This document shows positions 1,757-10,063 of a stretch of DNA of 64,000 nucleotides, in pieces. This DNA is from Candidatus Poribacteria bacterium (GTDB lineage: Bacteria; Poribacteria; WGA-4E; GCA-2687025), in contig OY762492.1 in assembly GCA_963665845.2 (NCBI GenBank), forward strand, positions 544,001 through 608,000. The letters run 5' to 3'. How positions within the stretch are numbered: the first letter of the stretch is position 1; each line of letters starts with the position of its first letter. The notes beneath the pieces were generated by a model. It saw nothing but the letters and a program-made list of their open reading frames with translations. It was not told the origin of the DNA and made no database searches. Made by a program: the position numbers and the translations under genes.

Positions 1757-3109
1757 CTACATCTCCACCTTAAAGATGTCGGCTAAATCCGGGGATCCGA
1801 ACAGCGCCATGACGACGCCGACAATCATCAGAATCATCAGAACCGCCTTGGCGACATCCTGGGCGCGAATGGCGCTCAAGAGCGGGGCGTCCTGGGAGAG
1901 GTAGGCGCTGGCGGCAAACAGCTCCTCGCCGATCAGCGTGTAGTCGCATGCGGCGATAAAGAACGGGAGCTGCGCGTCCCTGTCGGTGCCTGCAATCTGT
2001 ATCGCGCCGACGCTATGCCCAGTCTCCGCCAAGATGAGCGATTCGGCGTAAAAGACGCCCTGCAGGAAGATGGCGGCAGGCTCCTCGCGCACAATGATTC
2101 CGTCCACGCCGGCGGCGTACGCGAATTGACTTTCGGTCACAAAAAAGATGTTGTCGGGGTCGTATAGGTCCGGCCGCCCGATGCTTTGATAGGTTTGCTC
2201 TCCGACGGTGCGCATGACCTGCATGACGATCGGGTCGTAGCAAGGGACCATAATTCGCGTCGCATGTTCGGCTGCCGTTTTGATGACATGGCTGAAGATA
2301 TTGATGGAGGCGATGGTGGCCATCTGCTGAACGCTGCCGATGCCGGCGATGTAGAGAATGGGCTTGTCCATCTCGGCGCTGCGTCCGATCGCCTCTTCAA
2401 CCGCTTCCAGACCGTCAATGCGGCGTATGCGCGGCGGATCGCCTTCCCTGGAGCGGTAGGTCAAGACGACGAGCGTTCCGCAGAACAGCAGCGCCGCGGC
2501 GAGAAGCCATGAGCGCCCCGTGTGAAACCAGTTGGAGCGGGCGGCGGCGGGCGCGCTTTCCGCCGAGTTGACGGCGGAAGCCTCATACACTTCCTGAACG
2601 GCGTAAATATACGGAACCGCTTTTTCGCGGGTGAAGAGCGGATCTTTTCGGGCGGGCGCGGCGGAGGCGTCCCTGTAATCGCGCGCGGTCGGCGGAAGCG
2701 GCTCGGCGGTGATTTTCTCTAAACTGGAGCCTGGCGCGTCCGCGCGGCGCAGGATATGGAACCCAACGAGGCTCTCGCTCGGCTCGCCTTCATACTCCCA
2801 TACGACGTCCAAGCCCTTGCCGCTGTCGTCGTTTGGGACATCCGCCGCCCTTACATTCTTGACGGAAGAAGAGCTGTAAAGAGTGTAAAGAGTAATATCT
2901 TCCGCTGTGAATTCAGTCACGGATTCGTCAAATGTGATTGTGGACTCCAAGCCTTGTCCGCTGTCGTTCTGAGCATCGTCCTCTGTGACGGCATTATCGT
3001 CGGCGGATTCGATGGCGGTTTGCGCATGGCAAACAGATCCGCTCCAAACGCCGGCGAATAAAACCAGTAAGCCCGCCCAACGCAGCGTATGTCTCAAAAC
3101 GCTCTTCAT
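1757..3109 (-). CDS. Signal peptide + FN3-like domain + DUF6754-like membrane protein
   Basis: True start is probably ATG 3109 (GGAGG RBS). C-terminal motifs IRRIDGLEAVEEAIGR, FYAESLILAETG and QLPFFIAACDYTLIGEELFAASAYLS. Confidence 0.8.
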   Translation of the reverse strand: MKSVLRHTLRWAGLLVLFAGVWSGSVCHAQTAIESADDNAVTEDDAQNDSGQGLESTITFDESVTEFTAEDITLYTLYSSSSVKNVRAADVPNDDSGKGLDVVWEYEGEPSESLVGFHILRRADAPGSSLEKITAEPLPPTARDYRDASAAPARKDPLFTREKAVPYIYAVQEVYEASAVNSAESAPAAARSNWFHTGRSWLLAAALLFCGTLVVLTYRSREGDPPRIRRIDGLEAVEEAIGRSAEMDKPILYIAGIGSVQQMATIASINIFSHVIKTAAEHATRIMVPCYDPIVMQVMRTVGEQTYQSIGRPDLYDPDNIFFVTESQFAYAAGVDGIIVREEPAAIFLQGVFYAESLILAETGHSVGAIQIAGTDRDAQLPFFIAACDYTLIGEELFAASAYLSQDAPLLSAIRAQDVAKAVLMILMIVGVVMALFGSPDLADIFKVEM

Positions 3110-3143
3110 AACGCCTCCGACCCGTTCCGTACGGCTTGCCGCG

Positions 3144-3680
3144 TCAAAATGCGGCGTGTTCAACAAAGGTATCATACGCTTTCTCATTAAACAACGCAAA
3201 CAGAACCAGCTCAAGCGACGCATCCTCCGCCAAAAAAGCGGCGACTGCCGACGACGCCTCCGCCGCCGCTTTATCCGGCGGATAGCCGAAGACGCCTGTT
3301 GAGATCGCCGGAAAGGCGACCGTCTTGCATCCGAGTTCGACCGCCGTTTTGAGCGCGTTTCTATAGCAACTGCGCAGCTTTTCAGGTTCGCCGGCATCTC
3401 CGCCATGCCAGACCGGCCCGACGGTGTGAATCACATACCGGGCGGGCATGTCGCCGGCGGTTGTCGCCGCCGCCTCGCCGACCGGCAAACCGTTCCGATA
3501 TTTTGTGCGGCGCAGCGTTTTACATTCAGCCAAGATCGCAGGTCCCCCCGCGCGGTGGATGGCGCCGTCGACTCCTCCTCCGCCCATGAGAGTACCGTTC
3601 GCCGCGTTCACAACGGCGTCCACCTCCAGCTGCGTGATGTCCGCGACCTTCGCCGCGGCGCGTTCGCCGAAACGCTTCAT
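3144..3680 (-). CDS. Macro domain O-acetyl-ADP-ribose deacetylase (YmdB-like)
   Basis: VVNAAN..LMGGGGVDGAIHRAGG, VIHTVGP and FPAISTGVFGYP motifs. Confidence 0.93.
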   Translation of the reverse strand: MKRFGERAAAKVADITQLEVDAVVNAANGTLMGGGGVDGAIHRAGGPAILAECKTLRRTKYRNGLPVGEAAATTAGDMPARYVIHTVGPVWHGGDAGEPEKLRSCYRNALKTAVELGCKTVAFPAISTGVFGYPPDKAAAEASSAVAAFLAEDASLELVLFALFNEKAYDTFVEHAAF

Positions 3681-4771
3681 CCTTCGCTCCCTTCCGCCTC
3701 ATACCCGTTCATCGTGAACGCAACGCCGAGCGCTTGATCGGGCGTCTGGATCAATTTTTCGCATGCTTCGGCGGCGTTGTCAATCGGAACCATGTCGGTG
3801 ATGAGCGTCTTGACATCCAGCCGCCCCTCCGCCATGAAGCGCAAAACCGTTTCTAAATTGCGCTGCGTCGGGCGCTCCACAAACACAGGCGGATAATGCG
3901 CCCCCCGTTCATACGCTTTATCATGGTAGCCTGGTCCGGTGCGCGCCGCGCTTATGACGTCGATATTGCCCGCGCCGGCGGCGAAGCTGTGCTGTATCGA
4001 CGCGCCGCCGACAATGACGATGCGCCCCGTCTTATGTCCGTCGGGGGTCGTTTTTAAAAGGGCGCGCAGCTGTTGAAACGCGCCGGTAGCGTCCCCGCCG
4101 AACGCGATGACGCCGGCGTCAAATCCGTACCCGTTTGTGAATTCGTCTCTCACATGGCTGACATCCATTTCCGCCGCGTTTTCGACTCGGTCGGCGCCCG
4201 CCCGCCGCGCCGTTTCTAGACGCAGCGCGTTCATATCCAGTCCGAGAACATGCGCGCCGGCGATGCGCGCCGTTTGACATACCAGCTGCCCGACCATGCC
4301 GAGTCCAGCGACGGCGACATTTTCGGCGATGCCGATGCGCCCGCGCTGTATGGCGTGGAGCGCCGTCGCGGCGAGATGGCACGCGGCGCCTTCCTCATAA
4401 GAGACGCCGTCCGGCATTTTGGCGCACAGGTTTTGAGGGATGTTCGCATGCGTCGCGTGGAGCGCGTATCCGCCGCCCATCCCTGCGATTCGGTCGCCGA
4501 TTTCAAACTGCCCGCAGCCCTCCCCCTTGCCAATCAGAACGCCCGCGTTGGAATATCCGAAGGCGCGTTTGCCGGGGTTTTCTTTATGCCGGCTGCGTCG
4601 GTTTTTCACGCCGCCCAGCTCGGTGCCGGGACTGACGAGAGAGGCGCGAACTTCGATCAAAAGCTCGCCAGCGCCGAGCGGAGGGAGAGGAGCCTCCTCC
4701 GTCCAGATGCGGCCGTTGTCGTCCATGAAGACAACCTTGCGGGAAGAGGTTGAAGGCGCGGATCGGCTCAT
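3677..4771 (-). CDS. MDR-family (zinc-binding-type) dehydrogenase
   Basis: SPGTE...GYS N-terminal motif and Rossmann GLGMVG. Confidence 0.85.
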   Translation of the reverse strand: MSRSAPSTSSRKVVFMDDNGRIWTEEAPLPPLGAGELLIEVRASLVSPGTELGGVKNRRSRHKENPGKRAFGYSNAGVLIGKGEGCGQFEIGDRIAGMGGGYALHATHANIPQNLCAKMPDGVSYEEGAACHLAATALHAIQRGRIGIAENVAVAGLGMVGQLVCQTARIAGAHVLGLDMNALRLETARRAGADRVENAAEMDVSHVRDEFTNGYGFDAGVIAFGGDATGAFQQLRALLKTTPDGHKTGRIVIVGGASIQHSFAAGAGNIDVISAARTGPGYHDKAYERGAHYPPVFVERPTQRNLETVLRFMAEGRLDVKTLITDMVPIDNAAEACEKLIQTPDQALGVAFTMNGYEAEGSEG

Positions 4772-5442
4772 GGCGTTTCCTTTTCGGCAGATTCAGGGGC
4801 TTGAAGCTCCGAAGCGGCTTTGACGGCGTCCAGTATCTGCTTTGTGGTCGGGCGGTCATGCAGATTGGCGGACACATATTTCCATTGGATCGCTCCGTCG
4901 GGATCAACGACAAAAACTGCCGCTTTGGAGATGTTTGGATGAAGCGTGTCAGGGTCAAAAAACGGGTTGCTTTCAGGGTCCAGCGCCTTGTACGCCTTCG
5001 TTATTTTGCGCGATGCGTCGCTCAACAACGGGTAGTCGATCCTCAACCGCTCCGCCAGCGCGAGCGACACTTCAGGCGCGTCCACGCTGACCGCCAGGAC
5101 CGTTCCGCCGCGCTGTTGAAAACGGGCTTTCGCTTCGCGCAGCTCCACGAGCTGCTTCCTGCAGACCGGTCACCAATGCCCTCTGTAAAACACGAGCGCG
5201 AGCGTCTGTCCGCGGTAATCGGCAAGGGCGACGGGTCTTCCGTTCTGGTCGGGCAGGGAGAAGGGCGGGGCGTAGTCGCCCAGTTCCGCGCCGACCGGCT
5301 GCAGGTTCGCCTCGGCGCCGTTTTGTTGAGCGGTCGCGTCTCCGTTCTTTGCGGAGCCTCCGCAGGAGAGGCATGCCAAAAGAGCGTATGAGACGGCAAG
5401 CGCCGCGGTCAAACGGGCGGGGCGGATTCTGTTCATGGGCAA
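4768..5442 (-). CDS. Selenocysteine-containing AhpC/TSA (peroxiredoxin-like) lipoprotein
   Basis: Track ORFs 5170-5442 and 4768-5148 are in frame. Reading through TGA at 5172-5170 gives FYRGHW-U-PVC (UxxC) in an intact Prx-like fold. Lipobox LLACLSC. Confidence 0.88.
5139..5155 (-). promoter_or_regulatory. Putative bacterial SECIS hairpin
   Basis: GCAGCUC-GUG-GAGCUGC perfect 7-bp stem with a G-led loop, 14 nt after the in-frame UGA. Confidence 0.65.
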
Positions 5443-5567
5443 AGCATAGCGTACTTGGCGCGGAGATGTTAACGTCCAGCTTGGAAAATGACGAAGAGGG
5501 CGAGGCGCTTGCGCGTCAGCGCGCCGCTGTATAGACTCCTCTCAACGACTTCTGCAGGACGCCCTTT

Positions 5568-7100
5568 ATGCAGCCGCCCGCCGTTCAAACCGTATCCGTC
5601 TCCAAGCGTTTCCCCGGCGTTCTGGCGCTGGACGACGTCTCCTTTGAGACCCGTTACGGCGAGATACACGCTCTCTGCGGAGAAAACGGAGCCGGCAAAT
5701 CGACCTTGATCGGAATTCTCAGTGGACGATGGGCGGTCGGTTCCTACGAGGGGGAGCTGCGTATCGACGGAGAAACGGCGCGCTTCCGAAATGCGCGCGA
5801 CTCGCAAAACGCCGGCGCCGCCGTCATCCACCAAGAGCTTGCCCTCGCCCCGATGATGTCGATTGAAGAGAACATCGCGCTTGGAAGAGAGCCGACGCGG
5901 CGCGGGCTTCTTGACAAACGGCGCATGCGAAACGAATGCGTCCGCCTGATGGAGACGCTTCAACTGGACGCCGACCCCGCGGAGCCTGTTTCGCAGCTGG
6001 GCGTCGGACAGCGGCAGATGGTGGAGATTGCAAAGGCTCTCGCAAGGGACGCCAAGATACTCGCGCTGGATGAGCCGACCTCCGCCTTAACCCAGACCGA
6101 AAAGGAGACGCTGTTTGCCGTCCTTCAACGTCTCAAACGGAGCGGAACGGCGCTGATCTACATCTCGCACCGCTTAGAGGAGCTGTTTGAGATCGCCGAC
6201 CGCGCGACCGTTCTGCGCGACGGGCAAAGCGTCGGCACATGGAAAATGGACGAATTGACGCCGCCTTTTCTGGTGGAAAAGATGATCGGGCGCGAGCTGA
6301 AAAACCGTACGCATGTGAAAAAAGCGTCCGAGGCGCCGCCCGCCTTGACGCTTCAAAACTGGTCGGCGTACGCTGGCGCGGGTCGGGCGAAGGTCGATAA
6401 CTTGTCCCTTGAGGCGCGCCCTGGCGAGATACTGGGCTTGGCGGGGATGATGGGCTGCGGCAGCTCCGAGCTGCTGTTGAGCCTCTTCGGCGCATGGAGA
6501 GGGCGGACGGAGGGGCGGATGGAGATCGACGGCAAGCCCGCGCGCATACGCAGCCCGATAGAAGCGATGCGGGCGGGCATGGCGCTCCTCACCGAAGACC
6601 GCAAACGGGACGGACTCTGGCTGGATGAAAGCGTTGAGACGAACCTGACAGCGCCGATACTGAATGAAATCGCGCCGCATGGCGTCTTGAACCGCAAGGA
6701 GCGGCGGCGGCGCGCCGAAGAGACAGCGCGGCGGTTGGACATACGCCCGCCCGATGTTCAGGCGCAGGCGCGCAGCCTCAGCGGCGGCAATCAGCAGAAA
6801 ACGGCGATCGGAAAGGCGCTCATGACGCAGCCGCGCATACTGCTGTTGAACGAGCCGACGCGCGGCGTGGATGTCGGCGCGAAGGCGGAGATACACGGGC
6901 TGACGCGCCGTCTGGCGAAGCAGGGCGCCGCCGTTCTCATGGCGTCGTCCGACATGACCGAGATACTTCACCTTTCCGACCGCGTACTTGCGATGCGAAA
7001 CGGGCGCGCCGCGGCGCGTTTTGACGACATGGCGCAGGCGTCGGCGGAAGCGGTCTTGGCGGCGGCCGTCGGCGCCGATACGCGCGAGAATGAACCTTAA
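5568..7100 (+). CDS. Sugar ABC transporter ATP-binding protein (XylG/RbsA-like)
   Basis: GENGAGKST, two NBDs, LSGGNQQK. Confidence 0.92.
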   Translation: MQPPAVQTVSVSKRFPGVLALDDVSFETRYGEIHALCGENGAGKSTLIGILSGRWAVGSYEGELRIDGETARFRNARDSQNAGAAVIHQELALAPMMSIEENIALGREPTRRGLLDKRRMRNECVRLMETLQLDADPAEPVSQLGVGQRQMVEIAKALARDAKILALDEPTSALTQTEKETLFAVLQRLKRSGTALIYISHRLEELFEIADRATVLRDGQSVGTWKMDELTPPFLVEKMIGRELKNRTHVKKASEAPPALTLQNWSAYAGAGRAKVDNLSLEARPGEILGLAGMMGCGSSELLLSLFGAWRGRTEGRMEIDGKPARIRSPIEAMRAGMALLTEDRKRDGLWLDESVETNLTAPILNEIAPHGVLNRKERRRRAEETARRLDIRPPDVQAQARSLSGGNQQKTAIGKALMTQPRILLLNEPTRGVDVGAKAEIHGLTRRLAKQGAAVLMASSDMTEILHLSDRVLAMRNGRAAARFDDMAQASAEAVLAAAVGADTRENEP

Positions 7101-9475: not shown

Positions 9476-10063
9476 ATGAAACGTCAATTCGGTCTAGCGG
9501 CGTTCGGATGTTTTACCGCGGCGGCGCTTCTAGTTTCACTTCACGGCTGCGGAGATGACACGCACGACCATGAACCGCACACCACCCCCTTCGAAGAGAT
9601 CGCAAACGCGATCGCCGTCATTCATCCGACTGAAGGCAATACGGCGTCAGGCGTTGTGAAATTCATGGCGATGGAAGGCGGCGTCCATGTTACCGCGCAG
9701 GTCACAGGTCTCACGCCGAACGCGTCGCACGGGTTCCATATTCACCAGTACGGCGACTGCTCCGCCGCGGACGGGACGAGCGCCGGCGGGCATTACGACC
9801 CTGAAATGACCGGCCGCCATGGCTTGCCGGACAGCGAGGAGCCGATACACGCCGGCGACCTCGGCAACCTGGACGCCGACGAAAACGGCGAAGCGACCTA
9901 CGACAAAATGATCATGGGCATCAGCATCGGCGGAACCGACAGCCCGATTTTGGGGCGGGGAGTCATTGTACATGCGCTGCCGGACGACGGCGGTCAGCCG
10001 ACAGGCAACGCCGGCGCGCGCATCGGGTGCGGCGTCATCGGGGTCGCCAACCCTGGCAACTGA
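9476..10063 (+). CDS. sodC: Cu/Zn superoxide dismutase lipoprotein
   Basis: HGFHIH, SAGGHYDP, HAGDLGNL and GNAGARIGCGVI. Lipobox LHGC followed by a His-rich stretch. Confidence 0.95.
   Translation: MKRQFGLAAFGCFTAAALLVSLHGCGDDTHDHEPHTTPFEEIANAIAVIHPTEGNTASGVVKFMAMEGGVHVTAQVTGLTPNASHGFHIHQYGDCSAADGTSAGGHYDPEMTGRHGLPDSEEPIHAGDLGNLDADENGEATYDKMIMGISIGGTDSPILGRGVIVHALPDDGGQPTGNAGARIGCGVIGVANPGN

Follow-up and report, generated by a model that had tools for sequence, protein, structure and literature searches.

An in-frame UGA predicted to encode selenocysteine in a putative Prx-like lipoprotein of a Poribacteria bacterium, and its counterparts across the phylum

A gene in the genome of a Candidatus Poribacteria bacterium carries an in-frame UGA that, judged from the sequence, is almost certainly decoded as selenocysteine (Sec). 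The gene lies on the minus strand of the window, the 64,000-nucleotide stretch of contig OY762492.1 that we analyzed, and its predicted product is a further member of the known Prx-like 1 UxxC selenoprotein family (PF00578). The initial annotation had proposed a hidden selenoprotein at this locus, and the Sec machinery of the genome, the homologues at the UGA column, and contigs from other runs all agreed with it.

In the minus-strand frame 5442..4768, the only internal stop is the TGA at 5172-5170 (context LVFYRGHW*PVCRKQLVEL), and thus the two ORFs that had been joined across one TGA do form a continuous frame. Naive ORF calling splits the gene into 5170-5442 (90 aa) and 4768-5148 (126 aa), and neither fragment contains the complete UxxC motif. 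Such a split had been anticipated for standard annotation and was found in the protein collection, where the gene and three close relatives are stored solely as the 126-aa downstream piece (P0002-P0005), without the active site. The gene extent first proposed, 4768..5442, held for the frame but not for the start: an orthologue (L045) that is 82% identical and has the same downstream genes begins with MDITRPAR at the same place, which makes ATG 5436 a likelier start than TTG 5442. With this ATG, the product has 222 aa, with Sec as residue 89 and Cys as residue 92. The features of the locus are as follows.

4768..5436, minus strand: full coding sequence, 222 aa with the TGA read as Sec, from ATG 5436 to the final TGA stop at 4770-4768
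5362..5436, minus strand: predicted lipoprotein signal peptide MNRIRPARLTAALAVSYALLACLS-C25 (Cys22 is the alternative), from a lipobox-like motif and orthologues, heuristic
5281..5361, minus strand: low-complexity linker from the putative lipid anchor to the catalytic domain, from sequence, varying among orthologues
4882..5280, minus strand: AhpC/TSA (thioredoxin-fold) domain, PF00578, residues 55-187 of P0001, with an AlphaFold model
5170..5172, minus strand: predicted Sec U89, the in-frame UGA at the first UxxC position, from frame, homologue column, and phylum-wide pattern
5161..5163, minus strand: Cys92, second UxxC position and putative resolving Cys, aligned with the BCP/PrxQ peroxidatic Cys
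5139..5155, minus strand: candidate SECIS hairpin GCAGCUC-GUG-GAGCUGC in the codons for (K)QLVEL(R), from fold, paralogue identity, conservation, covariation, and controls
4933..4980, minus strand: loop DPESNPFFDPDTLHPN, a longer insertion common to the L016, L017, and L119 orthologues, from alignment
4921..4923, minus strand: Ala172, at the Prx catalytic Arg column, which is Pro in 63/71 Poribacteria Sec homologues
3677..4771, minus strand: Zn-binding dehydrogenase-like gene that follows, its ATG overlapping the stop of the selenoprotein gene (ATGA)

We compared the stretch with contigs from 4 of 12 listed runs (X2, X5, X6, and RNA run X12). Contigs of X2, which may be the source, span the stretch with 0 differences; a 190-nt contig of X5 crosses the TGA site, also with 0 differences; an X6 contig crosses it with two differences somewhere along its length; and X12 covers just 5579-5700, outside the gene. 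The suspicion that the TGA might be a read or assembly error was thus answered by contigs from other runs that carry the same TGA.

A match to the protein was present in 59 of 61 related genomes. Among the 30 best loci of these relatives, the column of the UGA held TGA in 38 of 39 matches and TGT in the remaining one. Cys occupied the column at 68 of 69 loci in the genome collection; because the seed pattern of that search contained Cys, no more follows from this count than that Cys forms are common. The proposal that the TGA sits at the first Cys position of a CxxC was therefore borne out, as homologues carry either TGA or Cys there. The second position, that of Cys92, is Cys in 69 of 71 Sec homologues.

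The perfect GCAGCUC/GAGCUGC hairpin that had been described 14 nt past the TGA was located at 5155-5139, with a 7-bp stem and a GUG loop. In the accessible text of the 2005 catalogue, a SECIS is expected to be a stem-loop just downstream of the UGA with a G in a small apical loop (PMC1088965), and this is the arrangement found. Judged on folding energy, the hairpin does not stand out: z is +0.65 for a 63-nt segment and -2.0 for a 26-nt one, for which 10 of 200 shuffled sequences folded equally well. Hairpin stability by itself is therefore weak evidence. A strict form of the hairpin (7-bp stem, 3-nt G loop, same spacing) follows 56 of the 118,051 TGA triplets in the genome (0.047%), a rate equal to that after TAA, TAG, TGC, and TGT. 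When sites were chosen by protein similarity, the 6-bp core was intact at 44 of 48 TGA sites versus 3 of 73 Cys homologues; similar tables that include pattern-selected loci are partly circular. The four exceptions were two divergent UxxS genes and two genes of genome G010. Across the protein-selected TGA sites, the Gln and Leu codons of the stem paired as CAA-TTG (34), CAG-CTG (7), and CAG-TTG (4), with CAA-CTG at 0; these sequences indicate that the stem shows compensatory synonymous changes. A search of Rfam over 4500-5700 gave nothing relevant, its single match (E 0.32) being to a human lncRNA model.

The Sec machinery that had been named as a check was found in the genome: selA (563.8 bits), selB (321.2 bits), selD (349.5 bits), and a tRNA-SeC gene 20 kb from the window. 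The selA and selB genes adjoin each other, and selD carries its own in-frame TGA followed by an 8-bp hairpin. TGA is also the commonest stop in the genome, ending 1102 of 2363 long coding ORFs, and so it is not globally reassigned. A screen of the genome's TGA sites for coding potential plus a short G-loop hairpin, blind to selenoproteins whose SECIS is shaped differently or whose flanks are very short, returned 39 candidates, of which five stood clearly apart: the gene described here, two paralogues, a W-x-x-UGC redoxin, and selD, all with 7-8 bp stems and the loop G at nt 21-22. The paralogues (C1:2982679 and 2983206) have a 17-nt hairpin identical to that of our gene at an identical distance from the TGA. 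They lie in tandem as Prx-like UxxC genes at C1:2982335-2983326 (L191); one is lipoprotein-like, and the other ends in a C-terminal 'AASVWAELKSR' tail. The redoxin at C1:856375 (L192) is a likely selenoprotein with the motif LYTWASW-U-GC, followed at an equal distance by a perfect hairpin of 7 bp, CTTGCCA-GGT-TGGCAAG; it resembles the WAxxUGC motif family and is named from the motif alone. Contigs C2 and C3 contain copies of C1 regions at about 97% identity and are likely strain-variant contigs; C3 holds a second selA/selB pair, 96-97% identical to the C1 copies and probably likewise of a strain variant.

Over the phylum, the TGA-plus-hairpin pattern was matched 350 times, at 1-5 per genome, and 155 of 176 Poribacteria genomes had it, whereas the controls over the same 176 genomes gave 0 for the reversed pattern, 0 for a Cys version, and 1 for a mispaired CAA..CTG version. 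These genomes are kin, and the pattern counts are therefore not independent. We found selA in 163 of the 176; eight of the 155 pattern-bearing genomes had no selA match, and these are fragmented assemblies that are 73-95% complete. A larger expansion, to 5-21 copies per genome, was considered and rejected, as those counts took in Cys-only ResA/TlpA-like genes; in the full listings, TGA was present in 7 of 12 matches for G025 and 7 of 21 for G037.

Other protein architectures were also seen. In two loci (L027:1173 and 1647; L124:1500 and 1974), a secreted protein has two tandem Prx-like domains with a TGA and a hairpin in each, and its sequence suggests that one chain probably carries two Sec residues. 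Many Poribacteria loci (L025, L026, L029, L032, L135, L130, and others) encode a Sec Prx-like domain fused to N- or C-terminal extensions of 150-400 aa, with a signal peptide ahead. A leaderless subfamily (L147:1617, L150:1617), probably cytoplasmic, has FFRGTW-U-PNS (UxxS) without the standard hairpin; its SECIS, if any, differs from that hairpin. In family f3 (G009, G013, and G016), there was neither a selA match nor a close Prx-like homologue, and with G009 95% and G013 92% complete, it is possible that this family lost both the Sec trait and the Prx-like genes.

The read-through protein scored 115.7 bits against Pfam PF00578 (AhpC-TSA; cut-off, 26) across the TGA. An AlphaFold model built from a 75-row alignment had a pLDDT of 95.5 and alternating strands and helices, with the 4933..4980 loop as its least confident part (block pLDDT 75); a single-sequence model was poor (pLDDT 52). 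The closest solved structures by sequence were those of BCP/PrxQ (PDB 2cx3 and 2ywn), which matched the protein at E 1e-21 and the family profile at E 3e-34, with ResA behind them at E 6e-20. In the alignment to 2cx3, FYRGHW-U-PVC lies over FFPAAF-S-PVC, and AKRA is paired with the ARPA of the family (ISKAA in our protein). BCP/PrxQ proteins have PxxxT/SxxC and a catalytic Arg, whereas in our protein both are replaced and Sec stands at the Thr/Ser place, not at the peroxidatic position; in the PxxxTxxC comparison, the Prx triad is changed from Pro to Arg, from Thr/Ser to Sec, and from Arg to Pro or Ala. A true peroxiredoxin was rejected on these grounds and because the protein scored below every NCBIfam Prx cut-off. 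The label "Prx-like" is thus apt as a family name but not as a description of a peroxiredoxin active site. Ala at the Arg column is found in our protein, L016, and L017. A Pro in that loop marks thioredoxin-type enzymes, and with Ala instead of Pro facing the active site, the chemistry of our protein may differ from that of classic thioredoxin-like enzymes.

The family itself is known. The accessible text of the 2005 catalogue sets the Prx-like selenoproteins apart by a thioredoxin-like UXXC, versus TXXU (PMC1088965), and our protein has PF00578 and UxxC, not TxxU, as do Prx-like 1 proteins, or Prx-like thiol:disulfide oxidoreductases. Dataset S1 of a 2008 study lists 225 "Prx-like 1" sequences, including entries with FYRGHWUPYC and U-x-x-C-x-x-QL(G/V)EL that match ours by eye and one, JCVI_READ_852987, whose N-terminal ILSC lipobox-like leader is comparable to ours (PMC2398784); because the family, lipoprotein-like members included, is already in that dataset, we do not treat it as new. 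What differs from the published Prx-like 1 proteins is the host lineage, a longer DPxSNPF loop, and Ala where most have Pro. ResA/TlpA proteins are membrane-anchored thioredoxin-fold CxxC enzymes that probably share the type of chemistry and the location of our protein; however, it scored 56.7 (PRK03147) and 30.2 bits against their models (cut-offs, 170 and 230), has Ala at the facing-loop column where these WCxxC enzymes carry Pro, and is not a member. Separate ResA-like genes, with Cys only and the motif FWAxWCxxC, are present in the genome. The best NCBIfam match was NF040769, a SelL-related redox protein with a Sec-capable Prx-like fold, again without membership (68.5 versus a cut-off of 120).

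Export and lipidation at Cys25 are predicted from the N-terminal motif. The lipobox and the extracytoplasmic location proposed in the initial annotation were sustained in part: a lipobox-like motif is common to the three orthologues examined (ALLTCLSC in L016, VVVGC in L017, and VSVGGC in L119), all of which also keep the basic N-region and the hydrophobic stretch, but the hydrophobicity of our protein is 2.1 against a threshold of 2.2 in a crude heuristic. The same heuristic, applied to 69 Sec homologues after three rows cut at the 5' end had been left out, detected a hydrophobic leader in 62 and a lipobox-like motif in 32. Sec in an exported protein has reportedly a precedent in a multiheme selenoenzyme, of unrelated fold and pathway. 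The accessible text on SaoB and the Sec variants of the SaoX lipoprotein describes Sec in exported or lipoprotein-type proteins, as predicted here, although their folds and pathways are unrelated to those of our protein (bioRxiv 10.1101/2022.07.06.499078).

The overlapping Zn-dehydrogenase-like gene is likely in the same operon as the selenoprotein gene, given their arrangement. A macro-domain gene comes after it, and this order is kept in L045; in G004, the Zn-dehydrogenase-like gene is not beside the orthologue. At window 1757-3680 (minus strand), a long ORF called for a DUF6754 gene shares its 5' part, in a different frame, with a macro-domain gene; the true start of the DUF6754 gene probably lies downstream of the called one. 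Upstream of the selenoprotein gene, a sigma-70-like promoter, TTAACA-18-TATGCT (5472-5443, minus strand), ends 6 nt ahead of the ATG with no Shine-Dalgarno-like sequence; 1 site of this type was found versus 0.1 expected. A leaderless transcript was considered and is unsupported, as just 19 of 2346 predicted starts have TANNNT at that distance upstream, versus 7-24 at other spacings. A Cu/Zn superoxide dismutase gene lies at window 9476-10063 (plus strand); its N-terminal leader ends in LHGC, and the protein is likely a lipoprotein.

Taken as a whole, the mechanism that we consider rather probable is that of an exported, lipid-anchored thioredoxin-fold thiol/selenol-disulfide oxidoreductase with a U-x-x-C pair. 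SelB loaded with Sec-tRNA would recognize the G-loop hairpin, 21 nt beyond the UGA, and insert Sec, as in the known bacterial pathway, and the protein would then be exported and lipid-anchored at Cys25. Going by the alignment, the U89 selenolate would attack an oxidized partner thiol, and Cys92 would resolve the mixed bond to give a Se-S bridge, which a DsbD/CcdA-type membrane protein may re-reduce. The predicted outcome is that disulfides would be reduced or rearranged outside the cytoplasm. The genome encodes, at C1:890683, a transmembrane domain of the DsbD family that could supply electrons to the predicted enzyme; no redox partner was found among the gene's neighbors.

The position of Sec at the Thr/Ser place and the replacement of the Prx Pro and Arg favor this thiol/selenol-disulfide exchange, with Sec as the nucleophile, over a peroxide-reducing role for the same selenoprotein, which we regard as possible but less likely. 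In such a role, the selenolate would attack H2O2 or a lipid peroxide with no need for the Prx triad, and Cys92 would resolve the selenenic acid. The scaffold is closest to the BCP/PrxQ and AhpE peroxidases, the Arg of FYRG, conserved in 65 of 71 Sec homologues, could stabilize an anion, and extracytoplasmic peroxide is plausible given the leader-bearing superoxide dismutase 4 kb away; against this, Sec is off the peroxidatic position, all three triad residues are replaced, and known Sec peroxiredoxins use TxxU, the family having been split off by its UXXC in the accessible text (PMC1088965). Against the exchange reaction, one paper infers, not from an assay, that protein disulfide oxidoreduction is not a role of the Prx-like proteins (PMC3514251).

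We give low probability to a form of the enzyme without a lipid anchor, either released to the periplasm or, if translated from a later start, cytoplasmic. The borderline hydrophobicity, the two candidate Cys residues, and family members whose cleavable signal lacks a lipobox, or that have no signal, would fit it, but the small-residue-Cys motif, with its basic N-region and hydrophobic stretch, is kept in L016, L017, and L119. Least probable by far is that the TGA really ends translation, the gene being split or a pseudogene, that it arose as an error in the assembly, or that the codon has been reassigned, for example, to Trp. Databases do store the 126-aa piece as a protein, yet genomes throughout the phylum keep the TGA at the catalytic column, the hairpin covaries, and neither fragment holds the whole UxxC; independent contigs agree on the TGA, and a commonest stop codon is hard to reconcile with reassignment. 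The reading of a Sec-containing, lipid-anchored oxidoreductase is the one that we retain.

A possible reversal from Sec to Cys was seen in G004, a 61% complete genome of the same family as ours. Four Prx-like copies there (L017, L175, L177, and L181) have Cys and broken hairpins, and no selA, selB, selD, or tRNA-Sec was found over cut-off in that assembly; absence in such assemblies is weak evidence, since G010 (79% complete) has TGA copies without a selA match. We built trees of 35 and 108 sequences, leaving out the fourth G004 copy (a fragment), ResA-type genes, and half of the outgroup. L017 was sister to our protein plus L016 with support of 100/100, and two other G004 copies fell among different Sec groups with weaker support. 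L119, a Sec protein, has the DPxSNPF loop yet groups apart from our protein in both trees. A constraint of all-Sec monophyly was rejected at p(AU) = 0.026, with only 5000 replicates; the constrained search was a fast one, and deep nodes were weak. From these sequences, a Sec-to-Cys reversal in G004 is likely but unproven; the accessible part of a 2006 survey records none for the Prx-like family (PMC1794560). Only tentatively, and with more doubt than confidence, we suggest a wider picture in which Poribacteria are an overlooked selenium-using phylum with several mostly exported Prx-like selenoenzymes per genome and one standard codon-embedded SECIS, and in which the G004 lineage lost Sec decoding, with all copies back to Cys.

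We found no paper on Poribacteria selenoproteins in the open literature, and "Poribacter" is absent from the accessible portions of the text and supplement of BSepDB, which excludes unnamed species. Neither the UGA-plus-hairpin in 155/176 Poribacteria genomes nor the G004 Cys copies without detectable Sec machinery was found in print. Most Poribacteria live aerobically, in sponges or the sea. Selenoproteins are seldom retained in aerobic bacteria according to the accessible sections of a 2026 review, which still classes the Prx-like family as predicted with high confidence, without experimental verification (PMC13188914, section 10 for the former statement). The finding corrects annotation: in our gene, and in hundreds of its relatives among the Poribacteria, standard gene calling would cut at the UGA. 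With selA in 163/176 genomes, the phylum also joins the lineages charted as selenium users. Assays of this still predicted family would have a tidy system here, in the high regularity of the SECIS and in a natural pair of Sec and Cys orthologues (our protein and L017).
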